Positions 10,528-35,906 of a stretch of DNA of 64,000 bases are shown here, one piece after another. The notes under the pieces are model-generated. The model made no database searches, was not told the DNA's origin, and saw only the letters and a program-made list of their open reading frames with translations. The stretch spans positions 125,569 through 189,568 of the forward strand of contig DDUR01000061.1 in the NCBI GenBank assembly GCA_002344895.1, read 5' to 3'. Numbering within the stretch: position 1 is the first letter of the stretch; each line of letters starts with the position of its first letter. This DNA is from Ignavibacteria bacterium UBA2333 (GTDB lineage: Bacteria; Bacteroidota; Ignavibacteria; Kapaibacteriales; Kapaibacteriaceae). The translations under genes were made by a program, and so were the position numbers.

Positions 10528-10820
10528 CGATGTTCCCTTCGAGTACGAGCCTTTTGTAGTTGTCGTTCGATAATCAGATCGGCCAGCAGATCAGGCACGT
10601 CAGGAGGAATGGCTGTCGTAAAGATCTCATTCACACGCTGTTCCTGGACATCAATACGATACAGCGCAGCCATTAACCGCTCAGGATTTGACGTCAGGAG
10701 TTGAATGATTCTGTTCACAAGTGCGGCTCGAACGGCCTCGAGTGATTCAACTTCGTCAAGATCAAAGGTCAGAGAAATTTTCTCTGCAGCACTTCGCGCT
10801 AGTTCATCGTCAGATGACAT
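10524..10820 (-). CDS. Hypothetical small acidic protein of 98 aa.
   Basis: The ORF sits between hutI and the guanylyltransferase gene with 4-nt overlaps on both sides. I recognise no motif. Confidence 0.3.
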   Translation of the reverse strand: MSSDDELARSAAEKISLTFDLDEVESLEAVRAALVNRIIQLLTSNPERLMAALYRIDVQEQRVNEIFTTAIPPDVPDLLADLIIERQLQKARTRREHR

Positions 10821-12911: not shown

Positions 12912-12939
12912 TCTGCGAAGATCGGAATTCTCCCGGCCA

Positions 12940-13677: not shown

Positions 13678-13679
13678 GC

Positions 13680-18080: not shown

Positions 18081-19378
18081 TGAAATGTCCGTCACGTCGC
18101 CCCTTTCGCGCCTTAACCCTCATCACACTCTTTGTGGGAGTGATGGGTGCGGCTCACGGTCAACCTGCGTTGGAACGTATCGTTGCCGTTGTCGGCAAAG
18201 AAATCGTCACGCAGTCCGACGTTGACGGTCAGATCGAGGTACTCCTTCAGCGAGACAAGTCGATACGGCGTGACGATCCTGCCGTACGGCAGGCCGTTCT
18301 CGACCAGCTCATAAACGAGCGTCTCATCATGACAAAGGCTCAGGAAGATTCGGTAGAGCCGAGCGAAGAAATGGTGACTGAGCGAATGGAGCAGCAGCTT
18401 GCATACTTCATTCAAATGTATGGTTCGGAGAAGCGCTTTGAAGATGTCTATGGCATGAGTATCGCTCGTATCCGTCGCGAATTCCGCGACGAGATTCGTA
18501 AGCAGCTCATGGTAAAGATGATGTTAGATCGGAAGTTCTCAGATGTAAAGGCGACACGCGGTGATGTTGAGAATTTCTTTAACCGCTTTCGCGACTCGTT
18601 GCCGACCATACCGCCACGTGTGGACCTGTACCACATTGTAAAGTATGTGAAGGCTTCTGATGAGCAACGACGAGAAGCGCTCGAACTTGCAGGGAAGATT
18701 CGTGACTCGATCGTTGCTGGTGCTCCGTTTGCCGACTTTGCACGGCGGTACTCCGGCGATCCCGGATCTGCCGCCAATGGTGGCGATCTTGGATTCGTTG
18801 AACGCGGAAAGTTTGTAACGGCTTTTGAGAATGCAGCCTTTGCTCTCGAACCGGGAGAGATATCACTGCCGATCGAAACACCGTTTGGATATCATGTTAT
18901 TCAACTTATTGGGAAGACAACGTCTGCAATCAATTGCCGGCACATTCTGTTAAAGGTGGGCCAGTCAGATGCTGATAAGGAAGCAGCGCAGGCAGCCTTA
19001 AAGGATATCAAAAAGCGCGTTGAAGGCGGAGAAGATTTTGAGAAGCTTGCGCGCGACCTGTCCGACGAACGTGAGTCTGCTGGTTTTGGCGGCGCAATGG
19101 GACAGATTGAGTTTGATCGTATGCCAGATGAACTGCGTTCAACGTTGATGAACATTCCAGACAAAGGTGTCAGCGATCCCCTACCCTACGTCGCAGACCC
19201 TACAAAGCCAGGATATCACGTTCTCTACAAGAAGGGTATACTTCCTGAACACAAGGCCACCCTCGAGTCTGATTACAAACTGCTCGAAACCATGGCGACA
19301 CGTGAGAAGCGTTCACGCCTTGAGCTCGACTTTGTAGAGGAACTGCGGAAGACGGTCTATTGGGAAGTTCGTAAGTAG
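18080..19378 (+). CDS. surA: Periplasmic chaperone/PPIase SurA.
   Basis: There is a signal peptide, followed by the SurA N-domain 'RIVAVVGKEIVTQSDVDGQIEVLLQ'. Parvulin signatures are present (CRHILLKVGQ; FGYHVIQL). Confidence 0.8.
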   Translation: MKCPSRRPFRALTLITLFVGVMGAAHGQPALERIVAVVGKEIVTQSDVDGQIEVLLQRDKSIRRDDPAVRQAVLDQLINERLIMTKAQEDSVEPSEEMVTERMEQQLAYFIQMYGSEKRFEDVYGMSIARIRREFRDEIRKQLMVKMMLDRKFSDVKATRGDVENFFNRFRDSLPTIPPRVDLYHIVKYVKASDEQRREALELAGKIRDSIVAGAPFADFARRYSGDPGSAANGGDLGFVERGKFVTAFENAAFALEPGEISLPIETPFGYHVIQLIGKTTSAINCRHILLKVGQSDADKEAAQAALKDIKKRVEGGEDFEKLARDLSDERESAGFGGAMGQIEFDRMPDELRSTLMNIPDKGVSDPLPYVADPTKPGYHVLYKKGILPEHKATLESDYKLLETMATREKRSRLELDFVEELRKTVYWEVRK

Positions 19379-19441: not shown

Positions 19442-21406
19442 TCACCAGCTTTGCGAGATGGTTGCCCGGAAGATTGTCTCGCGATACGTGCCGCCATACA
19501 CTGCAGGCACTACGCGTTCATCAAAGATATTACGTTCAGCACGTATGTCGATGTTCGCATACTCACCAAGGGCAGCTGTTACTCCGATATGATATCCTGA
19601 ACGAGCACCATAGGTATCATCCAGTGCAAGCATGAGTCCGGCATTACATGATAGTTCATCAAACACGGAGTAAGAACCTCCTATGTCAACGGTTACAATT
19701 CCATTATCCGGCTGGCCAGCGGCCGACTGAACGATGTAACCCAATCCAGCCGTTACGGACAACGGGAAGACGAAGGATAGCGACTGTTGAACGTTCACGG
19801 ACGTTACGCCATAGTCTGAAGCACCCCGAAGTGTTGAGCTGTTCTGTTGGCCATAGGTAAGTGTTGTTCCTGCACCCATTGATCCTATCCGATAATTGTA
19901 TCCGGTGGTGACATTTAACACCGTCGTACGATTGTCGAACCGCAGTAGAGTATCCGTGGCATCATTAATCTGTGCATACGGCGCGTACGACACTCTTAAA
20001 AAAGGCCAGCGTCGGATATTGAGGCCGAGTGTTCCACCGAGTGACGTGATGGTTGTTGTGCTACGTTTCCATGGTATGAGGTTGTCGAGGTCACGTCGGT
20101 AAAACAACCCAACACTCATTTGTCGTTTCCAAAAGGATTGATCTGCACGAACATCATACCGAAGGATGTCTGTTCGCAGGTTGGGTACGGCAAGAGCACG
20201 ATATCCCGGGCCAATACGCCGAATACTTGCGGTAAATCGTGTGCCTGTTTCTCGAATGTTGACAGCTGTTTGTGCGGTGGCAGCCCAGTCGAAGTATGAC
20301 GACGCTGACGAGTCCGAGAGGCCAAGGAGGAATCCTGGAACGTCGTCATCAGAGAGTGTTGGAGCAGTTCTATCAGCAACCGTGAGAGATACTGCTGCTT
20401 CTGCCTGCATCGACCACACACCTTCAATCGGCTCAACACGAAGATCGAGTCCGGTTAACATGTTCTTCTGAGGTGTAAGTGCCGTATTCGAATCAGTCAG
20501 TGCAACACTAACTGGATCGTCCTCAACAAACATTCCGGTGAGAAAGACGTGTGATCCATCACGTCTGCCGACACCTAGTCGAGCCGCATATAGGTGACGT
20601 CCGTAGGCGGAATTGTCAGCCGACGTAAACAGTCCACTGTCAACGCGCACGGAGTCGAACCGCAACAGCGGGCGTTGCATTGTACCACCGGTAACGTGGA
20701 CATAGAACCAACCTGGATTCCATTCGAGCATAGCTCCCTGGATTCGTGCGCCACTCAGTGTGATGGGTGTAAAGGTTGGGAAGACTGTGCCAACGCCAAC
20801 GGTTGGCAATGAAGCCATCACGCGTTCAACGTCTGACATAAACCCCATTGATGACAGAACATCTGTGTAGTCCGATATGTCGCCTTTTGCAACATCACGC
20901 ATTTGTTGGAGCTTTCGATATTCCTCGAGTTCCTTTAATCTTTCCGGATCTACTCGTTGCAGACTATCACGCACCTCATCATACGAATCGAGCAGCTGTC
21001 CGGCCTCCGTACGTGCATAGTCGTTCAGTGCAGCATAAGCACGCTGTGTCACGATACGTCGAACAGCGTCGGGATCCAACGTCAACGAAAAGGCATTGAT
21101 GTTCTGCCGCACATCTCGTTGTTCACTACTCACAAGAACACTTGCTGTGAGAGGAATTCCGTAAAAGAGCAGGCTCGGATTCAGCTCTGCCCTCCACAGA
21201 TCTGGAGGTTTTTCCTGGAACGATCCTTGTCGTGATGCCGACTGTCCGAGTAATCGATAACTCCCCGTGACAATGACAGGTGCTTCGCCACTCCGAGAGC
21301 CAAACACAACAAACGGATTGCGCACAGGACCATTCTGATCCTGTGCCGAGGCCACAGACAGTGCTGCCACGAGAACGAGGGCGAACCCACCAAGTTTTGT
21401 CAACAT
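19442..21406 (-). CDS. Putative outer-membrane beta-barrel protein of unknown family.
   Basis: There is a signal peptide (MLTKLGGFALVLVAALSVASAQ). The C-terminal half shows alternating amphipathic beta-strands and ends in an aromatic residue (...ISQSW). The gene lies 13 nt downstream of the RCC1 gene on the same strand. Confidence 0.5.
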   Translation of the reverse strand: MLTKLGGFALVLVAALSVASAQDQNGPVRNPFVVFGSRSGEAPVIVTGSYRLLGQSASRQGSFQEKPPDLWRAELNPSLLFYGIPLTASVLVSSEQRDVRQNINAFSLTLDPDAVRRIVTQRAYAALNDYARTEAGQLLDSYDEVRDSLQRVDPERLKELEEYRKLQQMRDVAKGDISDYTDVLSSMGFMSDVERVMASLPTVGVGTVFPTFTPITLSGARIQGAMLEWNPGWFYVHVTGGTMQRPLLRFDSVRVDSGLFTSADNSAYGRHLYAARLGVGRRDGSHVFLTGMFVEDDPVSVALTDSNTALTPQKNMLTGLDLRVEPIEGVWSMQAEAAVSLTVADRTAPTLSDDDVPGFLLGLSDSSASSYFDWAATAQTAVNIRETGTRFTASIRRIGPGYRALAVPNLRTDILRYDVRADQSFWKRQMSVGLFYRRDLDNLIPWKRSTTTITSLGGTLGLNIRRWPFLRVSYAPYAQINDATDTLLRFDNRTTVLNVTTGYNYRIGSMGAGTTLTYGQQNSSTLRGASDYGVTSVNVQQSLSFVFPLSVTAGLGYIVQSAAGQPDNGIVTVDIGGSYSVFDELSCNAGLMLALDDTYGARSGYHIGVTAALGEYANIDIRAERNIFDERVVPAVYGGTYRETIFRATISQSW

Positions 21407-21419
21407 TGTGCTGACGGTT

Positions 21420-24323
21420 TTACGGTGTTGCCAATCGCTCAACGCGAATTGGTCCTAGAGGTGGGTCAAGTGGCACAGCGGTAAGATTCGTAATCGGCCC
21501 TTCTCCTAGCTGACCGTATTCGTGTGTTCCCCATGACCATAGTCCACCGTCAGCACGAACGGCCATGGCAAACGTACTTCCTGCGGAAAGGCCAACAACG
21601 GCATCGAGACGTGAGATCTTGACGGGTGTAAAACGGCCCACACGCGATCCGTCACCAAGTTGACCAAGGACGTTATTTCCCCATGCCCAGACGGTTCCTG
21701 TTGAATCGAGAGCCAAGGAGAACGTACCACCAGCGGAGATGGCCTTAATCTTGGGCAACCCTTGCACAACCATCGGCTGATGTCGGTCCTTCGTTGTGCC
21801 ATCTCCAAGCTGACCACTTGCATTTCCGCCCCACGTCCACACTCGCCCATCCTTTCCAAGTGCCATCGTGTGATGATCACCAGCACTCACAGCAATGACG
21901 TCGTACCGAGTAGTTGAAGGGCCCCCAACGGGAGCAAGAACGGGCCACCAGATGGCAGCGGCGGTATCGTCATCAAATCCACATTGGCCATGGTCATTGT
22001 TACCCCATGTGTACACGTTACCTGTCAGTGATAACGCAACGGAGTGTGAATGACCTGCAGCAACCTGACGGATCCCCTTTAACATCCCATGTTTCAGTGG
22101 CTTTGGAATGTGGAGGATTCGTTTGATCTGCGATGCCGTTGCTGGTGTTGAAAGTTCAAAGTTGATGATGGTACCACATTCCCAGGTGCGGTTGTACCCC
22201 CACACATACACGTCACCCTTTTTCGAGAGTGCTAGAGAGTGCCGGCTTCCAGCAGCCACCTGAACTATGTCGGCAAGGCCTAACGACACCGGCTCTGACT
22301 TTTGCTCGCGGCTATCCGTACCAAGTTGCCAGTAGTCGTTATACCCCCACGCCAGGACGTCTCCGGACTGCGTGACCGCTAGCGAATGGTCCATTCCCGA
22401 CGCAAGAGACTGAACGTTTGTTGCTTTGGCAATTTTTGACGGGACCGGTACAACGGCTCCATACGGTTTGGCAACGGATTTACGCAGATTGTCGCCCCAC
22501 CCCCACACAATATTTGGACGCGGCAACATCGCAAGGGAAAGTTGCGATTGTTTTTTCATGATTTCGGGTGACACGTCAACAAGTTGATATTCCGGTCCGT
22601 CTGGTTCATCTTCACTTGATGTTGCGCCCGTGAACCCAGATGTATATTTCTGCATACCTGCGGCTGACGCAAACTTTGACTTAAGCTGCGTTGACGTGCC
22701 GTCGATAACGTTTACCTCATCCAGGATTCCCGAATTCCCCTTCAGTGTTGTAATGTCCTTCGTCAGCTGCTCACGAATCTTGACTGGCAGTTTCTCCGGT
22801 GGCGTTGCGACAAGAGCGTGATTCTCGCCCGCGTCAAGCACCAGCACAGGAAGTTTGACGGTGTCATCCTTCTCTGCATCATGGAAGGTAAAATAGTCGA
22901 CATTGATATGTGCGGATTGTGACGAGTCTCTGATGAGGATGTAGGCGGCACGGTTAAGGTACTTTACAACGTCCCAATCGACGGGTACAAGCCTATCAGA
23001 TGTGCCCCTGCGTTCATCAGCATCGGTAGAGTACAGAACAAGAAACTCTTTTGAGCTTCCAGCCAGTTTGCGTGTGCGCATGGAACCGACCGTGTCCTTG
23101 GCAAGGCGCTCTACAAGAAGCTCAACGTTGGCCATGGGGGAAACTGAGCCACCTACAAGGAAACTCACGACGCTGTGCTTAATCTGAAACTCTTGTGAGA
23201 GCATACTACCCATCGCTGCGTCACCGTCAGCAGCCCCGAGTGACGTGACCCAGTATTTGGCATGATGTCCAAGTGTGCCTAATACGGCGTGTGATTCTTT
23301 TACAGGATCATCAACAAACGATGTCCCGTCAACCGTCCAACACGACAACGTACCTAACTCAAAATCCCAGTTTTCGCCTGGACACGGTATGTCTGCAGCG
23401 AGGTCATCTGTTGCAATAACCGGTGTGCCCCTTCCGCCCCCTCCCGACGTTGTATCTCGTCCGGTGTCATCACGTCCGTCACCGTCATCATCATCACCAC
23501 CATTATCAGCAGATGACGGCATATAGGTAAACGACCATATCTCAGATTCACCGAGTGGGATTCGTGCGCGTGCGCCGTCTTCAAACGCAGCAATTTTCCA
23601 CGCATACCGTTGCTGTGGTTGGAATCTGCGTGCCGAAACGGGATACTGAAGTGTTACGCGTGGCAGACGCTGCTGTTCAAACCATGCAGGATTTCTGGCG
23701 ATGGCGTCGGCAGGCGTCTGTTTTCCGAAAATCTCCACAACGCGAATGTCGTATGAGATACGTTGACCCGGCCCAGGAGGCATACTCGGCATCCATGAGA
23801 ACACGGGTAATAGCTCGGCCACATCTGACTCGTCAGGCGGAGTAATAAGAATCGGGATTGTTAACCTATTTATGATCACAAACTTACAGTCGCGTCCAAG
23901 CACCTGATCATTCTCTGCGAGGATTACCTCGCAGCAGATCGTGTAGTCGCCTGTAGGGACACTTCCCGTTTGTAATAGTGCGTCGCGATATCGAGGATTG
24001 GATTCATCAACGGTCACAGGCTGGACATCATTTCCGGTAACACGTGTACGTCCGGGCTGCAGCGTAAACACCTTCGTACGCGCGTCTGCGATGATACCAT
24101 CAGGTATTGACGTTTCTTCTGCGGTACCATGGAGATAGACCTCCAGGGGACGTCCAGACTGATTGTCGAGATCAATTTTCCAGAGATCACCAATTCGTAA
24201 TTGATTTGGTGGTGGCTGGGTTAATCGAATGGTAACGCGCTCCTGGCTCCGTGACGATTGAATCGTCAAGAGTAGGAATAGGACGGCTATCAGTGCGCCC
24301 CCGCGACTGTGTCTTCTCCTCAT
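21420..24323 (-). CDS. Secreted protein with a C-terminal RCC1 (regulator of chromosome condensation / ATS1-like) repeat beta-propeller.
   Basis: At least six repeats match the RCC1 pattern, including AGSRHSLALSKKGDVYVWGYN..., AGHSHSVALSLTGNVYTWGNNDHGQCG, AGDHHTMALGKDGRVWTWGGNASGQLGDG, AGGTFSLALDSTGTVWAWGNNVLGQLGDG and AGSTFAMAVRADGGLWSWGTHEYGQLGEG. There is an N-terminal signal peptide (MRRRHSRGGALIAVLFLLLTIQSSRSQ) and an Asp/Gly-rich linker. Confidence 0.75.
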   Translation of the reverse strand: MRRRHSRGGALIAVLFLLLTIQSSRSQERVTIRLTQPPPNQLRIGDLWKIDLDNQSGRPLEVYLHGTAEETSIPDGIIADARTKVFTLQPGRTRVTGNDVQPVTVDESNPRYRDALLQTGSVPTGDYTICCEVILAENDQVLGRDCKFVIINRLTIPILITPPDESDVAELLPVFSWMPSMPPGPGQRISYDIRVVEIFGKQTPADAIARNPAWFEQQRLPRVTLQYPVSARRFQPQQRYAWKIAAFEDGARARIPLGESEIWSFTYMPSSADNGGDDDDGDGRDDTGRDTTSGGGGRGTPVIATDDLAADIPCPGENWDFELGTLSCWTVDGTSFVDDPVKESHAVLGTLGHHAKYWVTSLGAADGDAAMGSMLSQEFQIKHSVVSFLVGGSVSPMANVELLVERLAKDTVGSMRTRKLAGSSKEFLVLYSTDADERRGTSDRLVPVDWDVVKYLNRAAYILIRDSSQSAHINVDYFTFHDAEKDDTVKLPVLVLDAGENHALVATPPEKLPVKIREQLTKDITTLKGNSGILDEVNVIDGTSTQLKSKFASAAGMQKYTSGFTGATSSEDEPDGPEYQLVDVSPEIMKKQSQLSLAMLPRPNIVWGWGDNLRKSVAKPYGAVVPVPSKIAKATNVQSLASGMDHSLAVTQSGDVLAWGYNDYWQLGTDSREQKSEPVSLGLADIVQVAAGSRHSLALSKKGDVYVWGYNRTWECGTIINFELSTPATASQIKRILHIPKPLKHGMLKGIRQVAAGHSHSVALSLTGNVYTWGNNDHGQCGFDDDTAAAIWWPVLAPVGGPSTTRYDVIAVSAGDHHTMALGKDGRVWTWGGNASGQLGDGTTKDRHQPMVVQGLPKIKAISAGGTFSLALDSTGTVWAWGNNVLGQLGDGSRVGRFTPVKISRLDAVVGLSAGSTFAMAVRADGGLWSWGTHEYGQLGEGPITNLTAVPLDPPLGPIRVERLATP

Positions 24324-24621
24324 GTTCGGCCTCTCGAACGCCGTGAACCTTGTTTTGAACCGTTCCGAACATACCACGGAAATCGTTCCGTGCAACATCA
24401 CGGAACATCATCAGACAATGTTTGGCCTTGTTTGGCTCACATCTGGCAACAACGCTGTCGATGTGATGAACTGTCCGATATGCCGTAGTTCAGTTTGGCG
24501 CACCCGACGATCTCACGAAGGAAAATGTTCCCTCCACATGGAACAGAAATCATTCTGAGTTGTACGAGTCGATTCGTGGCGTATGTTCGCCACAGGTTCA
24601 TGTAACAGGGAGGAGTTGGCG
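24324..24621. promoter_or_regulatory. Divergent intergenic/promoter region between the RCC1 operon and the giant-gene operon, containing operator-like inverted repeats.
   Basis: A perfect 7-bp inverted repeat with a 4-bp spacer, CACGGAA-ATCG-TTCCGTG, lies at 24375–24392. A palindrome GAAC-C-GTTC lies at 24357–24365, and further GGAAC/GTTCC half-sites follow. GGAGG lies 9 nt upstream of the ATG at 24622. Confidence 0.4.
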
Positions 24622-27600
24622 ATGAAGAGGATCGCCCTCAACGTTGGCGCAATTTCGCGGCGACGCATACCTCGCATTTCGGCTGATGCACGCTCTGCGG
24701 TTGTTGCATTGGTTGGTGCCGAGAGTGTCGTCCTGAGCAGACGGCGCGCCCTAGGCGTGGCCGGTGCGCTTGGTATTCTTGCAGCTCCTGCGGCTCGTGC
24801 CGTAGAGAGTGCACTTTCAGATTCCTATCGAATTGTACGCCGTGGACAGCGTATCGCCATCGTCGTTGCCGACGTTGAGCGGTGGGTTCTCGACCCGTCC
24901 ATGTTCGACGGTAGTCCCGAGACGTTCTATTCGGAGTCCGACGATGGTATTCGCCTGGAACTCCGCCATGCACGATATCCCGGCACATCGATCTCGGCCG
25001 ATATTGTTGCCGAGATTTCACGCGGCACAACACCCGTCGTGCGATTTACGGGTCCGCTATTTGCTGCCCCTTCGTCCGCACCGTTACTTGCATGGCTGCT
25101 CGAACGTGAGAGATACGAAACAACGTGCGCCGTTCGTGCACTGAAGGGATTGCAGTTTGCGGCAGTACTACCCAACGCATCAACGATACGATTTCGGCCT
25201 ACGTGGTCCTTTACCGTCGATGGTCGTGCTGACGTTACGATTGACTCGTTACAGCTACCGTGTGACCGACTTGATGTCCAACTGTTAAAGGCACAACGGT
25301 CGCGTCCATCGTCTCTACTTTCCGGCTCTGCATCGTCTGGTACGTTCCTTCGTGCTGTTCGCGGTACATCTGCGTGGAACATTCCCCTTCAGTTTTCTGT
25401 GAGCCCATCGGCAGAACTTGAGGTTGATGCCGATGCGTTTGACACGTGTTCACTTGAAGTACGCAGTGATGGTCGATTTGCAGGTTTGCTGGAAGGGGGC
25501 CGAGAAGGGGCAAGTAGATTCCAACTCATTCATCATGATGGCCATGTTGGATTCCGCGACGTTCGATATGCATGGACATCGGCAAATGGTGATCGTCATG
25601 AGGCCTTTGTTGCACGATATGCGTCAACACCATCGTGGATTCGCGCACATGGTATTGCCTTTGAGATAAGTGATCGCGAAGGTTTACCTGCATGTGAACT
25701 TGTACGACGTAATGGAGTTGTAGAGCGGTTTGTTGTTGCTCCGGCACTGAACCGCTATCACATCTCGGTTGCAAACGCAGCAACGGAACCAACGGCGGTT
25801 CCCGCCGCATCACAACTTGCCTTCCTGTGTTCGGCTGTTGCACCATCTGCGCTACCAAAGCCACACTTCGCTATGACAGCCGTTCGGCTGGAACCGGCAC
25901 AACAGTTTTCGCAGCAAACACAGATTGATGTCTTCAAAAAGGATACAAAACCGAATATTAAGGTTGGCAAACAATCTGGACGGTGGAGCAAAAAGCCAAT
26001 TGTGTTTGCGACAAATCCGCGCGTTACTGTTATCCGTCCTGAAGACCTGCTCGTCCTGACGTTTGAGTTCCAGAACATTACACTCAACAAGGCTGCGGGC
26101 ACGTTTGCGGCGAGTGGAACAAACTCACGATTAATCGTCCACTTCCAGCCACAGCACATTGCTGAGCGAGCGTTCTTCTATGTTACGGACGACGACACGC
26201 CGAAGGATAAGGTAAATGCCTCTGAAGCACCGGCCAGTGCGCCGAAGAATCAGTCAGGGAACGAGCCTCGTCTTGACCCACCGATTGAGGCCATCATGGC
26301 TCATTCGTCGCGACTTGTCTTTTCCCTTCCGAACGGACACTCCGGTAAGTTTTCTATTGAGGGATTACTCGACTGGTCAAAGCTGAAAATGGTTGTCTCG
26401 CCATCAGCCAAACCGCCTGATGCCGAGTTTGTATTGAGTGTGCTGGCAAAGTCTGCCGTCTCAAAGTTTGGTGGCATTACTGCACCTAAGGATCCCAAGC
26501 CGGGTGGATCGTTCCTCGCCAAAAAGGGCAAAACATCTCAGACAAAGACGTATGCTCTCAGTGGTGGAATAGCGTCGAAGGTAAAATCTTCCACGAAGGC
26601 AGTTGTTGAATCGAATGCCGACATTGCCACCACGATCTCGCCTCAGTTACAGGCAGAGTTAGCAGCAGCTATACTTGAAAAACCGCCGATTCGTGAACCG
26701 AAAGATGACGAAACGGCAATCGAGTATCCGTATCGGCTGTTTATGTCGCCGAACAAGTATGCGGCCTGGGCACACAGCACAAAGGCAAAAATTGACGACG
26801 AACGGCGCGCCGAACTTTGGCATACACGACTCGGCGTACTGCATGCCAGCGGCGAAGTCAACGAAAATGCTGCCTACTTCCGGACGATGCGGGCAATATG
26901 GACGCCCGACATGAAGATTGCCTACAACGTAACGTCGGCAGCTCGTGAGCGTCCGTTCCGTACATCGATTAACAGACGTGACCGGCGCGAACTTGTTCAG
27001 CTCATGAGTGACTATTCACTCAAGGACACGGAAGTAAAGCCGGTTGATGTAAAACGGTTTATGATGACATCACTCGGCGCTTGGGCAGACATGACAGGTG
27101 TCTGGGATCCAAAGGACGGCGAGCTTGACGTAGAACAATGGATTCAGCGCGGTACTCAGGGACGTGATCACTTTGTGCGTATCTGTTACAAAGGTTATCT
27201 CTTCCCGTTTGGACATCGTGCGACACTTGTGAAGGAAACGGAGCGCAAGTTCCGACGGACACCTCGTGGTGACATGGCTGCCTACCTCATGCAGCGTATG
27301 TACATCATCCTGCGTCAACCCGTACGTGACTATCCTGCAGCTGGACTTGCTGGTATGCAGTTCCAGGGTCGGGAGTTCCCCTTCCGTCGAATCACAATTA
27401 CAACGAAGATCACGCCAAATCTTTACGATCCTGGGCTTACGGCCTTGGATGTAGCGAACATGGGGCCAAACTCATTCTGGCCTCAGTTTGACGCAAACGG
27501 TCCGGTTGACGTGAAGTGGTCGTGTATTGGCACTGATTGGGATAATAACGAAGTACACTTCAGTGCACCTCTGGCCTTTATCGCCAACACGGCCGCTATT

Positions 27601-29727
27601 GGAGACAAGTGCCAATCGTGGATTAACAACACGTATAAAAACGAAACAGCACGGCGTACGCTGGAAATGGGCGGTCAACAAATCGCTTATGCAGCATCCG
27701 TCAAACTTGGCGACACGTCACTCCCGACAGGCAAGTTCACACTCCACGGTTACTACGCTCCTGAAGCCGAACAGTACACACCGCGCTTTTTCCCTCGTAT
27801 GGAGAAGTCGAAGGTTCGTATTGAGAAGGTTGCAGAGTTAACGGGCAACAGTGGTGAACGCGATGTTGAGTTCTTTACGAACTACCTCAAACATGCCTTC
27901 GAAAAGGGCCAGTCGTTCTCGAAGGGTGTTGTACCTGCTGCAGATCAGGTAAAAAATCCATCGCAGATCTTCGTTCGTCTTGTTGACAAGCTTGGATTGG
28001 ACTTTGGATCTCAAAGCGACAAGGCAGGCGGTCTTGCCGCACCAAGTCTTGACATCAGTGGCCTGTCCAGACTTATGGGACCGATCGCCGGTGATCTTAA
28101 GACGGACATTGAAAAAACTGCAGCGGCTATCGGAAACTTCGATCCGATGCAGTACTTCGAAAGTCTGTTAAGTGCAAAGATCCTGGGTGATATCACCTTA
28201 AAGGATGTACTCGACTTTGTGATGGACGTCCTGAACAACCTTGACAAGATGCCGTCACTCGACAAGAAGGACGACTTCGGTGTAAAGGATGCCATCAGTA
28301 AGGCCATGCCGAAAAACGAGCTCCTTCAGGCTCTCACGGACAAGATAGCGGAGACGGACCTCGTGAAGTCGGCGGCCGAAGAGCTCAACGCCGTTGCTGG
28401 TGAGCTCGACAAGGACGTAAAGGACGCACGCGACGCCCTGCTCGCAGAAATTGCAGATCTCAAGTCGGAAATCAACGAAGCCAAGAACAAGATCCAGTCG
28501 GACGTTGAAGAAGTAAAGAAGGCCATTGAAGACCGCGTTAACGAATGGAAAAAACGACTCGAGGACAAGGCAAACGAACTCAAGAGTGAGATTGAGAAGG
28601 CCATTAAGCCGCTTGTTGATGCTGGCAACGAAGCCTACAAGAAATACGAGCAAGCACAACAGGCGCTGAATGCGCTTAAAAAGGGCCTTAACCTTTCGTA
28701 TGAATGGCAAACCGAGATCAAGTCGTCACCAGGCAACATTCTTGTTCCTCTATATCCAGGGGCAACAACAAAGGAAAAGAAAGCGATACTCTATCTCAAA
28801 GCGTCGTTCACGAAAAAACTCGACCTTGAGCCGCCTGAGATCTTGATCTATGGATCACTCTCGAACTTTGTTATCAACTTGATTGGTGATGGAGCTGCCC
28901 AGTTCCTCATCATCAAGTTTAATCGACTTGCTGTATCCGCCAAGATTGGCCAGAAGCCGGATGTTGACCCCGACATTGAGGCCGTAGAGTTTGCTGGGCC
29001 ACTGGCCTTTGTCAACAAGCTCAAGGACCTCATCCCAACCGGCGGTTCAGCTGGAGGTGTTGGATTCTCCTTTGACCTCAACGTCAACTCAGCCGGCATC
29101 ACGGCCTCACTGACCATCGGCCTCCCGAACGTCACGGTAGGTGTGTTCTCGCTCATGAACATGTCCTTCCTCATGAGCTTGACGATTCCGTTTGATGGCC
29201 GGAGTTTTTCGTCATACTTCGCCTTCTGTACACGCGAGAATCCATTCCGGCTCACCATCATGATGTTTGGTGGTGGTGGATTCTTTGGCATCGAGATTCA
29301 ACCGTCGGGCGTGCGTATGCTCGAGGCGGCGTTTGAGTTTGGCGGCAACTTCGCCTTTGATTGTGGTGTTGCCTCTGGTGGCGCAAGTGTTATGGCTGGC
29401 GTCTACTACAAACTCGAGCGCAAAGAAATCGATGGCAAGGAAGTTGAACAGTCGGAACTCACCGGATACTTCCGTCTGACCGGCAACCTCAGCATCCTCG
29501 GCATCATTCGCGTTAGCCTACTTTTTGAACTCAAGCTCACATGGCTCAGCACCGGTAAGGTCTTCGGTACTGCCACGATTGAAGTGGAAATCGAGATCCT
29601 CTTCATCAGCTTCTCCGTCGGTGTTACCGTTGAGCGTCAGCTGAAGGGTTCTGACGGAGATCCAACCTTCCACGACATGTTGCCTCAGGCATCAATGTGG
29701 GACACATACTGCAACGCCTTCGCATAA
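24622..29727 (+). CDS. Giant uncharacterised protein of about 1700 aa with a twin-arginine-like N-terminal signal, a central coiled coil and a Gly-rich C-terminal module. I recognise no catalytic motif.
   Basis: It is one uninterrupted ORF. I placed the start at Met-Lys-Arg with GGAGG 9 nt upstream; an alternative ATG lies at 24583. The Tat-like motif is LSRRRALGVAGALGILAAPAARA|VES. The coiled coil is KDAISKAMPKNELLQALTDKIAETDL...EIEKAIKPLVDAGNEAYKKYEQAQQALNALKKG. The C-terminus is ...FGGGGFFGIEIQP...FEFGGNFAFDCGVASGGASVMAGVYYK...TATIEVEIEILFISFSVGVTV. Confidence 0.6.
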   Translation: MKRIALNVGAISRRRIPRISADARSAVVALVGAESVVLSRRRALGVAGALGILAAPAARAVESALSDSYRIVRRGQRIAIVVADVERWVLDPSMFDGSPETFYSESDDGIRLELRHARYPGTSISADIVAEISRGTTPVVRFTGPLFAAPSSAPLLAWLLERERYETTCAVRALKGLQFAAVLPNASTIRFRPTWSFTVDGRADVTIDSLQLPCDRLDVQLLKAQRSRPSSLLSGSASSGTFLRAVRGTSAWNIPLQFSVSPSAELEVDADAFDTCSLEVRSDGRFAGLLEGGREGASRFQLIHHDGHVGFRDVRYAWTSANGDRHEAFVARYASTPSWIRAHGIAFEISDREGLPACELVRRNGVVERFVVAPALNRYHISVANAATEPTAVPAASQLAFLCSAVAPSALPKPHFAMTAVRLEPAQQFSQQTQIDVFKKDTKPNIKVGKQSGRWSKKPIVFATNPRVTVIRPEDLLVLTFEFQNITLNKAAGTFAASGTNSRLIVHFQPQHIAERAFFYVTDDDTPKDKVNASEAPASAPKNQSGNEPRLDPPIEAIMAHSSRLVFSLPNGHSGKFSIEGLLDWSKLKMVVSPSAKPPDAEFVLSVLAKSAVSKFGGITAPKDPKPGGSFLAKKGKTSQTKTYALSGGIASKVKSSTKAVVESNADIATTISPQLQAELAAAILEKPPIREPKDDETAIEYPYRLFMSPNKYAAWAHSTKAKIDDERRAELWHTRLGVLHASGEVNENAAYFRTMRAIWTPDMKIAYNVTSAARERPFRTSINRRDRRELVQLMSDYSLKDTEVKPVDVKRFMMTSLGAWADMTGVWDPKDGELDVEQWIQRGTQGRDHFVRICYKGYLFPFGHRATLVKETERKFRRTPRGDMAAYLMQRMYIILRQPVRDYPAAGLAGMQFQGREFPFRRITITTKITPNLYDPGLTALDVANMGPNSFWPQFDANGPVDVKWSCIGTDWDNNEVHFSAPLAFIANTAAIGDKCQSWINNTYKNETARRTLEMGGQQIAYAASVKLGDTSLPTGKFTLHGYYAPEAEQYTPRFFPRMEKSKVRIEKVAELTGNSGERDVEFFTNYLKHAFEKGQSFSKGVVPAADQVKNPSQIFVRLVDKLGLDFGSQSDKAGGLAAPSLDISGLSRLMGPIAGDLKTDIEKTAAAIGNFDPMQYFESLLSAKILGDITLKDVLDFVMDVLNNLDKMPSLDKKDDFGVKDAISKAMPKNELLQALTDKIAETDLVKSAAEELNAVAGELDKDVKDARDALLAEIADLKSEINEAKNKIQSDVEEVKKAIEDRVNEWKKRLEDKANELKSEIEKAIKPLVDAGNEAYKKYEQAQQALNALKKGLNLSYEWQTEIKSSPGNILVPLYPGATTKEKKAILYLKASFTKKLDLEPPEILIYGSLSNFVINLIGDGAAQFLIIKFNRLAVSAKIGQKPDVDPDIEAVEFAGPLAFVNKLKDLIPTGGSAGGVGFSFDLNVNSAGITASLTIGLPNVTVGVFSLMNMSFLMSLTIPFDGRSFSSYFAFCTRENPFRLTIMMFGGGGFFGIEIQPSGVRMLEAAFEFGGNFAFDCGVASGGASVMAGVYYKLERKEIDGKEVEQSELTGYFRLTGNLSILGIIRVSLLFELKLTWLSTGKVFGTATIEVEIEILFISFSVGVTVERQLKGSDGDPTFHDMLPQASMWDTYCNAFA

Positions 29728-29742
29728 GGTCGGGACAATACC

Positions 29743-32700
29743 ATGGCGACTCAGGAACTACAATGGATGGCGCTTCCCTACGATGTGGAGAAGCGGGACG
29801 GCGCAACGATGTTACGTGTGGCCGTAATGTGTCTTCCAAAACTCCAGGACACTACAACAGCCGATAATACCCTTGCAGAGTATCCGGACTTTACGGACTG
29901 GCCACTCACGCTGCAGGGTATACTTATTGGTCTGAACATCGGTGGAACAAACATCCCACCGACGGACCTCACACCTGTTGATGACGCACCGGACTCGGAG
30001 ACATGGAAGGCCATCTTCCGCCCGACAACTCTCGTGCGCCCGTTTGAGTACAAGCCGTTTACAGATTTTCGGATTTTTTCCTATCCGGTTGGACTTGTAC
30101 AAAAGACAACGGCAGACCTGCTGACGTCCCTTGCAAAGTCCTATGTGAATGTTGAACCGCTTGTACCTCCAATGGGCAACAATGTTGGAGGTATCAACAA
30201 CGACAAACTTTCCTCCGTCGGCGCACAGGATCCTGCCCTTCAACAGCTTTCGCAGATTCTGTTACCCTACATCGAAACAGAGAAAGATGAGATTCAGCTC
30301 AGGTCGTTAAAGCAGCGCTGGGAAACCGAAGGCCGAAACGCAACACTCATGATGATGCGCCAGGAGACGGCTCCAAAACAACAGCGTGATGTGCGGAAGG
30401 GGCCCGTAGAGGTTCCGAGTAATCCTGAGACAATGCTTGAACGACCTGTTTCTCTGGCAACACCCGTTGGCCAGTTACAAATGGTTGAGATCTATCACAC
30501 ACCAAGGAACTATGCTGTTGACGGTGTTGTGAATGGTAAAAAATTACCGCGTGTACAGCGCGTAAAACCGTCACGTCCAAAGTTCGACTTCCATCAGGTT
30601 GTGAGCGTCATGCGTGATTATCCCGTGATGCTTCGCCGTCTTGGCCTTGTTCGTCACTTTGAGTTTAAGATGCCCGATGGCATGTCGGCAAACGGAAAAA
30701 TCCGCGTCAATGTAACGTTCCCTTCACCAAAGGTTGGAACAAAGAACGTTGTACCGTGGACAGCATATCGACTTACAACGTCCGGTGATGCTGCCTACTG
30801 GCAGTTCCTGCCACGTCCTGATAGTGATTCGGAGATTGTTGGGCCGGTACTGTGCCTTAACGACACGACGAATTACGACGTTGTTCAGATTGATGTTGAT
30901 ACTTCAGCAATGAAGACACTCAACTTCACACGCGCTGTTGTTGGTCGACTTAAAAAGACAATGAATACGCGGGATCAGAAGGCCGATGCTTCTCCACCTG
31001 CCGTTCGCGGTACCGGACTACAACTTATTCGCGTTAATCGCGGGTTAAAGCTGGCAAAGTCCCTCATCCGAAATGCAAAAAATTATAACCGTCTTGTTGC
31101 GAATGAAGAGGTAACACTCTACGCAGATGATGTGCTGCGCGGTTATCGAATCGACGTCTTTGATGCGAAGGATAATGCGTGGCGCTCCCTCATGCGTCGG
31201 AATCTTACGTTAAAGTTTCCGGAGGCCGCAACACCAGCTCTTCGTAACACCGGCGTCACCGTCAACGACGAAGAGGGAGTGCTATCGTTTGCAGCCACAC
31301 GACCTGTTTCTCCCGACCCCAATGCCATGCGCAGTCTGTATGCACATGAAACCATTGCTCAGTGGGAGAATTGGTCACTCGTTGCTCCGCGTATCGGCTC
31401 GTTTATTGGTGCCGAAGACGAGCTTCAACCAGATCAACCAACACAGTCATCACCGAACGACTTTGAGTATCGTGTTGACTCTACAGCGTCGATTGTTGCA
31501 AAGTCGCTGCCACGTCTACGATATGGAAGGAAGTACAGACTACGTGCTCGTATCGTTGATGTAGCTGGTAATGGCCCTGCACTCGACGAACTCAATCCGC
31601 TCGACTTCACATGTGCAACGGAACTCATAACGTATCTGCGGTGGGATCCAATTGTATCGCCAACAATCGCTCTCAGGAATCACCCGATCGAAGGTGAATC
31701 TCTCGAGCGTATGGTGATTCGCACGTTTAATGAATCCGACGACGAAACCGTTTTGCCCCCTATCGAAGCCCCTTCCCTTCGTCATGTCTTCCCACCAATG
31801 GCAAGTGTGGAAACGTGTGAGCGTCATTCCTTGTTCGACGATGAGGTTTCTGGCTCGATGAAGTCGGACATGTACGACATCATCGTAAAAAAGACAGGCA
31901 AGACTGGACAACCCGCAGACGTACCCACACAGTGGTATGAGCGTTCTGCAAGTGGTGGACTTGTTCCACTTGGAGCCATCAACACAACTCCTCCCGTTGC
32001 AAAACAGCAGAATGCGATTCGATATCCCATTGCACAGGTAGACAAGGCCGTAAGCCCATACCTGCCTGATCCAATGTCGAGGGCCGTAACGTTCCAGAGT
32101 GTACCGGGCATGAATGCCAACGAGTTGCTGGAAATCTCGATGAGTGGTGTTTCAACTGCTGCCATCACATCGGCCACAGGTGTCGTAACAGTTGCGTTTG
32201 ATGGACTTGCCAATTGGCCAGACGTTGAGAGTATTCTTCTCAAGCTCGATGAAGGAACAGAGAAACCGTCATGGGATGCGGGAACAAAGACGCTGACCAT
32301 CCGCCTGCCAAAGGGCGAACAGGCATGGATTCGATTCTCATCATCATTGGGAACTGATCAGACAGAGGCCGACACACGTTCGGCACTTCATGGTCACATG
32401 TCAACGCTCAACAAGGCAAACGTTACCGGTGGAGCACTCAAAGCTGCCGTACGCGGACTTTCCTGGCTCATCACACCTGGCCGCACACTACACCTCGTCC
32501 ACGCAACACAAAAGCCTCTCAAGAAGCCAAAGGTGGTGAAAGGGGCTGTAAAGGGGCGATGGTTTGATTCAACCAATGCGCGCATTCATCTTACAGAGTT
32601 GTACTGTGATGCACGGTCAACACAGAAGGTAGACATCTCGGCACATTGGGAAATGGACACCGACGATGTTTCGAAACCGGCACCGGAAAAGCTTCAGCAG

Positions 32701-34029
32701 AAAGCACACGTTGGTGATCGTCATGCCGAGAATCGGACAGACGATACAATCGACTTTGACAAAACGCAGGAGTTTGGCGATACGAAGTATCGTCGGATTG
32801 AATACTTACCAACAGCAACTACTCGATTCCGCGAGTTTTTGCCTTTGATACGCAAAAACACCAACGACAAGATTACACGGCTCGGACAAGGGATCACACT
32901 CGATATCCTTTCATCAAAACGACCGGATGGTGTTGATCTGCTCTACGTCGTTCCGTCCTTCCGTTGGGTTGAAGAAAGCAAAACATTTGCCAATGGCCTC
33001 GTAAAAAGCACCCGTAAGGGTGGTGGCCTTCGTGTCTACATGAACAGGCCTTGGTACTCATCTGGTAACGGCGAACTTCTCGGCGTGATTCTCTACTCGT
33101 CAAAAAAATTCTCAACGGGACAGAATGCACCACCAGCCGACAATGGAGTGGGTGGTGGTTCGGGTAACATCACGTTTCAAAAGGGCATAAAGGACTTCTC
33201 GAAATCGAAGGTTGCTACGAATATCGACCTGGCGTTAAACAACCGACTGGATATTCCTGAGCAGCTTCAGCCCTACGTTACGCAGTGGGGCCTGGATCCG
33301 ATCTGGCTTTCTGCACCTACTCCGGCAGATGCTGCTCCTCGTATCCAGAACTTCCGTGTGCCCGACATTGTCCTTGACAGTGTAAGCATTGAAGAGGTGC
33401 CCGCTTCCCAACGATTTAGCGTCATAGGTTACGAACCAAAGTTTGACGCAGAACGTAAACTTTGGTATTGTGACATTGAGGTTGATCCGGCTGAGAGTTA
33501 TTGGCCGTTTCTTCGCCTTGCTCTTTGCAGGCTACAGCCGAAGTCGGTTGCTGACTCACAAACAGGGCGTGACGTCTACGTTTCGCGCATTGTCCAGTCT
33601 GAGTTCTGTCAGCTCGCTCCAGATCGTGAGGCTACGGCCCGTGTTGACGATGGTGACGCTACGGTCACCGTACAGGTGGTCGGCCATACGTATCGTATGA
33701 ACACGGCAGGACATCAGGGCTCCGATATCGAAGTCACCATTGAGCGCCGTAAACCATCAGCAGGTGGTGAAGATCTTGGTTGGGAACCTGTCGTAACACA
33801 ACGTATTGACCGACTCCACGGAGCAAACATGTGGGGTGGTACGATTCCGGTTCAGGGCGGAGTAAATTCTGCTCAACATCGTGTTGTCATCAAGGAATAC
33901 GAACAGTTCTTTGTTGATCCAGAGAAGAATCGTGATTCAAACCTTGGTGACCCCGTTACTGGTGAAGGCGCTATGACGTTCTCACTCGACAAGCGTATTG
34001 TTTACGCTGACATCTTACCACTCTTCTAG
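29743..34029 (+). CDS. Giant uncharacterised protein of 1428 aa with no recognisable domain or signal peptide, coupled to the upstream giant gene.
   Basis: It is one uninterrupted ORF starting 13 nt after the upstream stop. I see no Walker A, HExxH, GxSxG, YD/Rhs or T9SS CTD motifs. Coding-like codon periodicity is maintained throughout. Confidence 0.6.
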   Translation: MATQELQWMALPYDVEKRDGATMLRVAVMCLPKLQDTTTADNTLAEYPDFTDWPLTLQGILIGLNIGGTNIPPTDLTPVDDAPDSETWKAIFRPTTLVRPFEYKPFTDFRIFSYPVGLVQKTTADLLTSLAKSYVNVEPLVPPMGNNVGGINNDKLSSVGAQDPALQQLSQILLPYIETEKDEIQLRSLKQRWETEGRNATLMMMRQETAPKQQRDVRKGPVEVPSNPETMLERPVSLATPVGQLQMVEIYHTPRNYAVDGVVNGKKLPRVQRVKPSRPKFDFHQVVSVMRDYPVMLRRLGLVRHFEFKMPDGMSANGKIRVNVTFPSPKVGTKNVVPWTAYRLTTSGDAAYWQFLPRPDSDSEIVGPVLCLNDTTNYDVVQIDVDTSAMKTLNFTRAVVGRLKKTMNTRDQKADASPPAVRGTGLQLIRVNRGLKLAKSLIRNAKNYNRLVANEEVTLYADDVLRGYRIDVFDAKDNAWRSLMRRNLTLKFPEAATPALRNTGVTVNDEEGVLSFAATRPVSPDPNAMRSLYAHETIAQWENWSLVAPRIGSFIGAEDELQPDQPTQSSPNDFEYRVDSTASIVAKSLPRLRYGRKYRLRARIVDVAGNGPALDELNPLDFTCATELITYLRWDPIVSPTIALRNHPIEGESLERMVIRTFNESDDETVLPPIEAPSLRHVFPPMASVETCERHSLFDDEVSGSMKSDMYDIIVKKTGKTGQPADVPTQWYERSASGGLVPLGAINTTPPVAKQQNAIRYPIAQVDKAVSPYLPDPMSRAVTFQSVPGMNANELLEISMSGVSTAAITSATGVVTVAFDGLANWPDVESILLKLDEGTEKPSWDAGTKTLTIRLPKGEQAWIRFSSSLGTDQTEADTRSALHGHMSTLNKANVTGGALKAAVRGLSWLITPGRTLHLVHATQKPLKKPKVVKGAVKGRWFDSTNARIHLTELYCDARSTQKVDISAHWEMDTDDVSKPAPEKLQQKAHVGDRHAENRTDDTIDFDKTQEFGDTKYRRIEYLPTATTRFREFLPLIRKNTNDKITRLGQGITLDILSSKRPDGVDLLYVVPSFRWVEESKTFANGLVKSTRKGGGLRVYMNRPWYSSGNGELLGVILYSSKKFSTGQNAPPADNGVGGGSGNITFQKGIKDFSKSKVATNIDLALNNRLDIPEQLQPYVTQWGLDPIWLSAPTPADAAPRIQNFRVPDIVLDSVSIEEVPASQRFSVIGYEPKFDAERKLWYCDIEVDPAESYWPFLRLALCRLQPKSVADSQTGRDVYVSRIVQSEFCQLAPDREATARVDDGDATVTVQVVGHTYRMNTAGHQGSDIEVTIERRKPSAGGEDLGWEPVVTQRIDRLHGANMWGGTIPVQGGVNSAQHRVVIKEYEQFFVDPEKNRDSNLGDPVTGEGAMTFSLDKRIVYADILPLF

Positions 34030-35061: not shown

Positions 35062-35595
35062 ATGCAGAGTCCGTTCTCCTCTCGTACGACCCAATTCTTT
35101 CTCTTTCTGTTTATCCTCGGCGGTTCGATCTGGTTCGGCTCAGCCGTTGCCAGAACGATCGTTGGCTACGACCTGTTTATCCCAGGTACGCTGACGATGA
35201 AGGACCAGGCTGAGGCCGTTCGAATCCAGACGATACGTCTCCACACCCTCCTGGCATCCTGGACGGACATCTCCTTTGCGCTCTTTGGTCTGAGTGGTAT
35301 TGCCCTCATTGTTCGGTTACGACATCTCTTCCGTGAGCGCGGCTGGATGCTGATGTGTTCCCTTCTTTTTCTGTTGATGTTACCGGCAGGTGGCTGGACA
35401 GCGTGGGAGGATTATCACGCCTACACCCTCTTTGATCGTGTAACGGGCGTGGCATTGGCACCTGCCGAAGAGATCATCGACGTATTTTTGCGACGTCAGC
35501 AAAACGTCGCCTTCGGCGTGCTGAGCGGACTGACCGGACTTTCTGCTGTCAGCCTTATTCTCATCGGCGCCTTTCGCCCCCTCCATCGCTCATGA
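35062..35595 (+). CDS. Hypothetical integral membrane protein with about 4 TM helices.
   Basis: Four hydrophobic stretches are present (FFLFLFILGGSIWFGSAV; ISFALFGLSGIALIV; MLMCSLLFLLMLPAGGW; FGVLSGLTGLSAVSLILIGAF). Confidence 0.5.
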   Translation: MQSPFSSRTTQFFLFLFILGGSIWFGSAVARTIVGYDLFIPGTLTMKDQAEAVRIQTIRLHTLLASWTDISFALFGLSGIALIVRLRHLFRERGWMLMCSLLFLLMLPAGGWTAWEDYHAYTLFDRVTGVALAPAEEIIDVFLRRQQNVAFGVLSGLTGLSAVSLILIGAFRPLHRS

Positions 35596-35906
35596 AGGCA
35601 GATAAACTCCTCGAAGAACTCACGGAAGTAGCACGCACACTGGGATATGCAGTACGTCGGGAAACCGGTACGTTTCGCGGCGGTGCCTGCTTACTCCACG
35701 AACAACGGCTCATCATCATTAACCGGTCCATGCCACCTGAGGCAGCGGCCGTTATTCTTGCCCGGGGTCTTTGTCGTCTGGAACTTGGTGATACGTTTCT
35801 CAAGCCCGCTGTTCGAGAGATCATCGAACGTGAACGTGGATGGGTAGAGAACCATCCTGATGTTACCATTGAGCCTGTAGCTCCTGCCAAACAGGACGCA
35901 GCATGA
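35592..35906 (+). CDS. Hypothetical protein of 104 aa.
   Basis: The ORF overlaps the upstream and downstream genes by 4 nt each. I recognise no motif. Confidence 0.35.
   Translation: MKADKLLEELTEVARTLGYAVRRETGTFRGGACLLHEQRLIIINRSMPPEAAAVILARGLCRLELGDTFLKPAVREIIERERGWVENHPDVTIEPVAPAKQDAA

Follow-up and report, generated by a model that had tools for sequence, protein, structure and literature searches.

The window analysed here is a stretch of 64,000 nucleotides (nt) from Ignavibacteria bacterium UBA2333 (assembly GCA_002344895.1, contig DDUR01000061.1, positions 125,569–189,568 of the forward strand), and its subject is a pair of very long adjoining genes, for which we will use the terms A and B. 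Gene A is an uninterrupted open reading frame (ORF) at 24583–29727 on the + strand and encodes 1714 residues from its first ATG, from which the residues of A are numbered below. The probable start, an ATG at 24622 (MKRIAL...), is preceded by the Shine-Dalgarno-like sequence GGGAGGAG and gives a protein of 1701 residues, ~187 kDa and an isoelectric point (pI) of 8.4. The identical NCBI protein (HCN05208.1/HRK03507.1), labelled “hypothetical protein” and assigned to a Bacteroidota/Chlorobiota metagenome-assembled genome (MAG), also has 1701 residues, matching the start at 24622. Gene B (29743–34029, + strand; HRK03506.1 in NCBI) starts with ATG and encodes, without interruption, a protein of 1428 residues (159 kDa, pI 6.5). 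Together the two genes form a 9.4-kb unit with a combined protein mass of ~345 kDa. An earlier reading of the window from its letters only (the sequence-only reading) had pointed out two long uninterrupted co-directional ORFs of ~1700 and 1428 residues, and the ORF list confirms this. The gap of 13 bp given there has to be corrected, as the spacer between the stop codon of A (TAA, 29725–29727) and the ATG of B measures 15 nt (29728–29742, + strand).

Judging from sequence comparison, A and B are genuine genes under strong purifying selection. Full-length relatives are found at 49–59% identity and many more at 25–35%, and the ratio of nonsynonymous to synonymous differences (pN/pS) against a contig of a sister strain (L085) is low, at 0.054 for A and 0.019 for B. 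These observations, together with the 3840 clusters of B relatives described below, agree with the earlier claim that the ORFs are not random noise. The GC content of A-B, overall and at third codon positions (GC3), is no different from that of the neighbouring genes. The pair is surrounded by housekeeping genes, and no integrase, tRNA or flanking repeats marking an insertion have been found around it. Upstream of A, a divergent intergenic region (24402–24621) separates the gene from an accessory operon; 223 of 224 nt are identical in L085, and neither an Rfam element nor a sigma-70 consensus promoter was found in it.

The breadth of the family depends on the search used. A word-indexed homologue search returned 23 matches for A and 42 for B, which made the family look rare, and a third, profile-based search for A added only two fragments, coiled-coil words having saturated its candidate list. 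An exhaustive search with residues 262–1428 of B recovered 3840 representative clusters at E ≤ 1e-3 and 1725 at E ≤ 1e-30, counted as clusters at 50% identity; these relatives are mostly 1200–1500 residues long. A scan of one genome per species gave at least 555 confirmed loci, 80 of which were kept for the analyses at the level of the locus. The carriers belong to at least 12 bacterial phyla plus one archaeon and are scattered patchily among them. Some of the 80 loci come from Kapaibacteria/Chlorobiota, Balneolaceae and Rhodothermales. The others are from Acidobacteriota (including Aminicenantes), Actinomycetota (Streptomyces, Streptoalloteichus), Chloroflexota, Armatimonadota, Bacillota (Paenibacillus alvei, Symbiobacteriaceae), Verrucomicrobiota, Myxococcota, Desulfobacterota (Geobacter hydrogenophilus), many Alpha-, Beta- and Gammaproteobacteria (Bradyrhizobium, Phyllobacterium, Litoreibacter, Thiothrix) and, as the sole archaeal carrier among them, one Nitrososphaeraceae archaeon. 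The pair is also present on 20 plasmids or chromids, including megaplasmids of the Bacillus cereus group, replicons of Rhizobium and Streptomyces, and the chromid of Cupriavidus metallidurans CH34. A-B is thus a widely and patchily spread cassette and not an oddity of one lineage.

Throughout this distribution the two genes stay together. In 74 of the 75 loci that have upstream DNA, B is immediately preceded, on its own strand, by a gene of the A family, as determined by ORF clustering and a tblastn check of the apparent exceptions. The spacer is mostly 8–16 nt or a small overlap (~70 loci), and the ends that meet at the junction are themselves conserved, with A terminating in ...W..YC.AFA and B opening with M.KQT(I/V).WTALPNG...LRLSVFVSPRL. 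The identity matrices of A and B are correlated with r = 0.76, compared with at most 0.27 when the labels were permuted 1000 times. The flanks are unrelated between lineages, and the 111 immediate flanking ORFs contain no recurrent Pfam family. It follows from this obligate pairing, the correlated matrices and the unrelated flanks that A-B is a self-contained cassette whose two genes are inherited, and evidently also transferred, together. The orthologues are intact and co-inherited, and two accessory genes, described below, are linked to the pair in nine loci.

Some individual loci deserve mention. Among the loci that extend 10 kb upstream of B, L020 (Chlorobiota MAG-306, 10001–14239) stands alone in having no A-like gene next to B. 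A single Symbiobacteriaceae MAG (SMAG_U11993) carries two A-B cassettes on different contigs (L007 and L045), which implies paralogous copies. Three loci labelled “uncultured Hyphomicrobiales” or “Alphaproteobacteria” (L003, L006 and L022) carry a Kapaibacteria-type cassette, and two of them (L003 and L006) also match the housekeeping synteny downstream in the window (Era, a BamD-like protein, a thioesterase and a type IX secretion system (T9SS) plug); these labels probably reflect mis-binning.

Neither protein could be placed in a known family. With Pfam, NCBIfam, PADLOC and PHROGs, A gives only sub-threshold coiled-coil matches at residues ~1235–1380 (Apolipoprotein, ZorA, SMC, tape-measure and similar) and B gives nothing. 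The PADLOC defence models match A in its coiled-coil region only (LeoA, ZorA, LmuB, JetC), and the PHROGs matches are weak and likewise confined to coiled coil. Sub-fragments of A and B have no family match in the sequence libraries, and no Pfam family is common to the diverse relatives that were scanned singly, 33 of A and 34 of B. Sequence-profile searches of the PDB with four alignments returned apolipoprotein/coiled-coil noise for A and nothing for B. The top match of these searches, 23wo (“DP221”), was rejected, being a designed helical protein aligned to the A coiled coil, and the name “apolipoprotein A1/A4/E family protein” that some A relatives bear in NCBI is a misnomer arising from the same coiled coil. 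A comparison of the A and B profiles with hhalign indicates that the two are not homologous to each other. No match was obtained by tblastn against 50,697 phage genomes and no relative among IMG/VR viral contigs, and no paper in the searchable library describes the family, also when accession numbers are used to look for it.

The large envelope and toxin families were also looked for by their own hallmarks. AsmA and DUF490 (TamB) domains have no Pfam or NCBIfam match in A, B or the 33 A and 34 B relatives, and the long open β-taco groove fold typical of TamB/AsmA was not found in A or B. The same holds for the Tc toxin domains (VRP1, neuraminidase-like, TcA_TcB_BD, SpvB, TcdB-mid) and an RHS cocoon, and YD/RHS repeats have no Pfam or NCBIfam match in A, B or the scanned relatives. 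B of the window has no Pfam match to repeat-adhesin domains of the Big, cadherin, VCBS or RTX type and, unlike repeat adhesins, the protein is conserved over its full length with many invariant residues. Neither A nor B shows the type V autotransporter arrangement, in which a C-terminal 12-strand β-domain (PF03797) follows a Sec-exported passenger. The SLH domain is absent from A and 33 A relatives in Pfam. The sequence-only reading had seen no recognisable family or motif in either protein and had named TamB/AsmA, Tc toxins, Rhs proteins and adhesins as families to be compared; the profile searches bear out the former and give no match to the latter in the window proteins or the 67 relatives. 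Its proposal of an undescribed two-component module also stands, given the intact and co-inherited orthologues. It also held that all other large proteins of the window can be assigned, which is not true of a neighbouring protein of 666 residues that has no Pfam match. In our rating, A-B belongs to none of the kinds of system described so far, with the caveat that this is based on negative searches and predicted structures.

The domain limits of A were derived from BLAST coverage across 73 relatives and from an AlphaFold2 model of residues 700–1714 (24-sequence alignment, mean predicted local distance difference test (pLDDT) score 71); all coordinates are on the + strand. The protein begins with a conserved motif, MKRIALNVGAISRR (24622–24663, residues 14–27), for which the N-termini of 59 A relatives give the consensus M.R.RLNLAALR. 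A twin-arginine translocation (Tat)-like signal, SRRRALGVAGALGILAAPAARA, follows at 24733–24801 (residues 51–73), with an A-x-A site before VES. The N-terminal domain (24805–25992, residues ~75–470) has no Pfam match and is present in ~26 of the 73 relatives, about a third. The next, small conserved domain (26008–26412, residues ~476–610; motifs RPEDLL..FEF.N and PQHIAE) is found in ~55 of the 73, has invariant residues R485, D488, Q524 and E528, and is the point at which short-form A proteins begin. A variable Lys/Ser/Ala-rich linker of pI 9.7, visible as a drop in coverage (26413–26679, residues ~611–699), leads to a β-rich core domain (26680–28227, residues ~700–1215) modelled with a pLDDT of 80–95. 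The core contains R861 and D862, which are invariant across phyla, and has no fold match among the matches listed. Beyond the core lie a variable coiled-coil or amphipathic helical insert (28255–28752, residues ~1225–1390), present in less than half of the relatives, and a C-terminal β-domain (28780–29724, residues ~1400–1690).

This C-terminal domain is the most conserved part of A. It is rich in glycine (11%) and hydrophobic (grand average of hydropathy (GRAVY) +0.38), and is predicted to be an all-β closed barrel with long hairpins, resembling the barrels of outer-membrane proteins, followed by the short conserved helical tail that ends in ...W..YC.AFA. In the predicted strands a strongly hydrophobic face alternates with a small or polar face. 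The weak list that Foldseek returns for the model consists of outer-membrane barrels, with SlpA (8ae1; probability 0.82, E 4e-3) among the best; the barrels of Hbp, BrkA, intimin, FhaC and CdiB are also among the fold matches. Microsomal triglyceride transfer protein and lipovitellin gave long alignments, which were dismissed as noise (TM-scores 0.07, probability 0.08).

In long-form A proteins (e.g., L012, L021 and L026) the basic M.R.RLNLAALR motif is located 25–35 residues before the twin-arginine-like motif. The n-regions of Tat signals are not normally conserved, and this motif might be a chaperone-binding or regulatory segment.

B is mostly β and is predicted to be a compact array of immunoglobulin (Ig)- and fibronectin type III (FN3)-like sandwiches, a likeness seen at the fold level only. 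In no lineage does it carry a signal peptide or a transmembrane segment. Across phyla it keeps many charged and aromatic residues without change, such as DFH (282–284), E511, D606, D776 and D1013. These residues, together with R485/D488, E528 and R861/D862 of A, could suggest a secreted enzyme complex that degrades or modifies a polymer (for instance a glycan or the cell wall), with the invariant Asp, Glu, His and Arg residues forming an unrecognised catalytic site and the Ig-like domains binding the substrate; Tat export, typical of proteins that fold before export (PMC6708511), would suit such an enzyme. We consider this very improbable, since no glycoside hydrolase, peptidase or lyase family matches any of 67 diverse members, no transporters or regulators for the use of a substrate are linked to the genes, and the hydrophobic barrel and coiled coil of A would be left unexplained.

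Several observations bear on where A-B acts. In a motif scan, a Tat-like motif with a suitable h-region was found in 25 of 59 complete A ORFs, plus two near misses (~45%); the Aminicenantes forms, for example, read ISRRKFLSYAGILGAAP at this position. On N-terminal fragments of A relatives the Tat model TIGR01409 scores 12.8–18.2 bits in five of eight cases, one of them above the cut-off of 16.7 bits. The signal-less forms are alpha- and betaproteobacterial, actinobacterial, archaeal and from Bacillus/Paenibacillus. Modules of extracellular type are fused to B relatives, namely PG_binding_1, fn3 with pAdhesive_15 (an ice-binding-like adhesin domain) and a propeller fragment, and a fucose-specific lectin domain is fused to one A relative and one B relative.

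The accessory operon upstream of A in the window is a further clue to location. It encodes, on the − strand, a secreted protein (21420–24401, ORF of 993 residues, probable start 24323) with a C-terminal RCC1 propeller identified by Pfam and an outer-membrane-like protein (19442–21442, ORF of 666 residues, probable start 21406) with a signal peptide and a C-terminal aromatic residue. The N-terminal ~300 residues of the former (“TQPPPNQLRI.DLWK”) accompany A-B in other genomes of the Bacteroidota/Chlorobiota group, while the propeller is an add-on seen only in the Kapaibacterium subgroup. Neither this N-terminal domain nor the 666-residue protein has a Pfam or PDB relative. Both accessory genes are linked to A-B in nine loci, from Kapaibacterium, other Kapaibacteriota, Balneolaceae and Rhodothermales, and in three gene orders (divergent upstream, flanking, and downstream on the same strand). 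A linkage that is conserved despite rearrangement argues for a functional tie. The sequence-only reading had described the pair as an envelope or secreted module; this is supported indirectly by the Tat-like signal, the predicted barrel, the Ig-like domains, the fusions and the accessory linkage, and is weakened by the roughly half of the family that has no signal on either protein.

Within this setting A-B could be a module of the cell's own envelope, with A spanning the envelope or anchored in the outer membrane (the barrel in that membrane and the coiled-coil stalk in the periplasm) and B forming an attached Ig-like surface or periplasmic layer. The coiled coil directly before the predicted C-terminal barrel would be in the same order as in the tethers SlpA and OmpM (PMC9388160, PMC10628300), which combine SLH, coiled coil and C-terminal β-barrel, and SlpA stands near the top of the fold matches, weak as that match is. 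The Ig-like array of B, the peptidoglycan-binding domain in one B relative and the dedicated outer-membrane-like partner in the Bacteroidota/Chlorobiota group would also fit. However, the barrel is equally conserved in hosts without an outer membrane (Bacillus, Paenibacillus, Streptomyces and the archaeon), over half of the family lacks the coiled coil, and the patchy, plasmid-borne and sometimes duplicated spread is unlike that of a core envelope component. A further differs from OmpM and SlpA in lacking an SLH domain and any resemblance to them in sequence, and in having ~1,200 extra N-terminal residues, an obligatory partner in B and a Tat-like rather than a Sec signal; it occurs in single-membrane bacteria and an archaeon as well. 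It is also generally understood that a folded Tat cargo is no expected substrate for insertion into the outer membrane by the β-barrel assembly machinery (BAM). We therefore regard an envelope module of this kind as unlikely.

A quite different location is suggested by two Bacillus megaplasmids (L081 and L082), where a signal-less cassette lies in a variable, defence-island-like region. The genes annotated nearby include a restriction endonuclease, HNH endonucleases, DNA/RNA helicase-domain proteins, an LA2681-family HEPN protein and a small GTP pyrophosphokinase (small alarmone synthetase). Such neighbours would be in keeping with an intracellular conflict system, similar to anti-phage abortive infection, in which B or the core of A would sense an invader and the C-terminal domain of A would insert, from the inner side, into the cell's own cytoplasmic membrane to kill or arrest the cell. 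A two-gene self-contained cassette with horizontal spread, patchy occurrence and plasmid carriage would fit this as well, as would the very hydrophobic membrane-type domain and the half of the family with no signal peptide on either protein. On the other hand, PADLOC finds nothing beyond coiled-coil noise, no defence-type family recurs in the 111 immediate neighbours, the pair of the window lies among housekeeping genes, and the proteins contain none of the usual sensor or effector domains, such as a nuclease or an NTPase. Tat-like signals are present in ~45% of A proteins, and both the fused modules (lectin, fn3, adhesin and peptidoglycan-binding) and the two accessory proteins, outer-membrane-like and secreted, point outside the cytoplasm. 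A conflict system thus seems quite unlikely.

The best explanation, to which we give rather less than an even chance, is that A and B make up, as its two subunits, a single machine that is self-contained and horizontally mobile and works at or beyond the cell envelope. In this proposal A-B would be a co-assembled, exported, membrane-inserting binary complex that acts at the cell surface or on foreign membranes. The two proteins would be made in a ratio of ~1:1 from their tightly coupled genes and would fold and assemble in the cytoplasm. In lineages such as that of the window, the Tat-like signal would carry folded A, possibly with the signal-less B as a “hitchhiker”, over the inner membrane. 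The hydrophobic C-terminal β-barrel of A, on its coiled-coil stalk, would be the membrane-inserting element, and B, whose Ig/FN3-like array gains lectin, peptidoglycan-binding and adhesin modules in some lineages, would be the binding or shielding partner, giving an overall outline like that of a binary membrane-attacking toxin or adhesion complex. In the Bacteroidota/Chlorobiota group the linked outer-membrane-like and secreted proteins may move the complex across the outer membrane or anchor it there. The formation of a complex, its export route, its insertion into a membrane and its target are what we infer; the genes themselves, their conservation and joint inheritance, the lack of a family, the predicted folds, the signal motifs and the domain fusions are what the analysis shows.

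The binary complex is favoured by the obligate pairing, the lack of a recurrent Pfam family in the flanks, the Tat-like signals, the signal-less B with its Ig/FN3-like sandwiches, the fusions of extracellular type and the accessory genes, and by some further points. An ordinary BAM-assembled outer-membrane protein is unlikely because the barrel, the best-conserved element, is kept in hosts without an outer membrane. The signal, where present, is of the Tat type, which takes folded cargo, and the signal-less forms must fold in the cytoplasm, both of which fit folding before a membrane is met. The patchy, plasmid-borne and once-duplicated distribution is as expected of an accessory gene set of the competition type. 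The co-export of signal-less partners by Tat is an established mechanism (PMC6708511), as in the hitchhiker pairs formed by the small and large subunits of hydrogenases and by DmsAB, in which one subunit carries the signal and its partner none, comparable to the Tat-like signal on A and the tightly coupled, signal-less B.

The weak points of the proposal lie mainly in export and in the barrel itself. The upper size of Tat cargo is quoted as ~150 kDa (PMC6708511), and both A alone (~187 kDa) and A with B (~345 kDa) exceed it. TIGR01409 does not match the N-terminus of A in the window, where the Tat-like motif was recognised by eye and by the motif scan, and in the roughly half of the family with no signal on either protein export would need another route or lysis. 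The barrel region is modelled with a pLDDT of only 65–80, a moderate confidence, and Foldseek gives no significant match in the PDB for the model. Known β-pore toxins build oligomeric barrels and carry no preformed monomeric barrel.

A bolder form of the proposal would make A-B a new class of machine, in which a Tat-exported A of ~187 kDa, or possibly an A-B complex of ~345 kDa, delivers a preformed β-barrel to a membrane without BAM. Such BAM-independent delivery would explain why the same barrel is found in double-membrane bacteria, single-membrane bacteria and an archaeon, although we hold this form of the proposal to be doubtful.

A-B shares single traits with other known systems. Like Tc ABC and other binary toxins, among them the α-pore toxins YaxAB/XaxAB and MakA-type proteins that are released without Sec signals, the family has co-encoded, signal-less giant subunits and added modules of receptor-binding type. 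With type V secretion (autotransporters, two-partner secretion (TPS), intimin/invasin) it shares a large N-terminal region followed by a predicted barrel, and a β-rich, Ig-like protein encoded beside the barrel protein. Unlike these systems, it has no Pfam match to autotransporter, POTRA or ShlB families, no Sec signal on A or B and no TPS domain in B, and it also occurs in organisms without an outer membrane. The Tat hitchhiker pairs differ from A-B in that A-B has no cofactor-binding motifs, is at ~345 kDa far above known Tat cargo, and is signal-less in about half of the family.

Thousands of relatives of A-B are present in bacteria of soil, sediment and water, and the family has no name, domain annotation or structural relative, so that solving its function would account for a sizeable part of the protein “dark matter”. 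If the combination of Tat export and a barrel holds, the known size limit of Tat would be stretched and a barrel would be placed in a membrane without the BAM machinery. A machine of this kind would represent a new class of membrane-attacking or surface-display system, and a toxin, adhesion or defence function would represent a new tool of microbial competition. The carriers include culturable Cupriavidus, Bacillus, Paenibacillus, Streptomyces, Bradyrhizobium and Geobacter, which makes all of these readings directly testable.

Further genes have been noted near A-B. In two Kapaibacteriota-type loci (L022, 1–2895; L024, 3–2645) a coiled-coil-rich protein of ~900 residues (cluster 51) is encoded upstream of the accessory gene and A, and could be a further accessory component. 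In an unrelated MAG a Kelch β-propeller gene lies directly upstream of A (L005, 1039–2976), which echoes the RCC1 propeller of the window. Two adjoining chaperone genes of the SurA/peptidyl-prolyl isomerase (PPIase) type, encoding 719 and 432 residues, occupy 15921–19378 of the window, just upstream of the accessory operon.

The comparison with the sister-strain contig L085 over 19743–43577 of the window reveals a mosaic of identity, with 93–100% over A and most of B and 77–89% in the housekeeping flanks. Near-identical blocks (99.8–100%) are located at 25743–26742 and 27743–29742, and the synonymous difference (pS) is 0.08 for A, 0.21 for B and 0.59 for era. This mosaic reflects either recent recombination or a cassette sweep between strains, or a chimeric metagenome assembly. 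Downstream of B, beyond a SRPBCC/GyrI-like gene, the window contains two small ORFs at 35062–35595 (177 residues, with no Pfam or PHROG match) and 35592–35906 (104 residues), and related Kapaibacteria loci have both in synteny (clusters 13 and 10).

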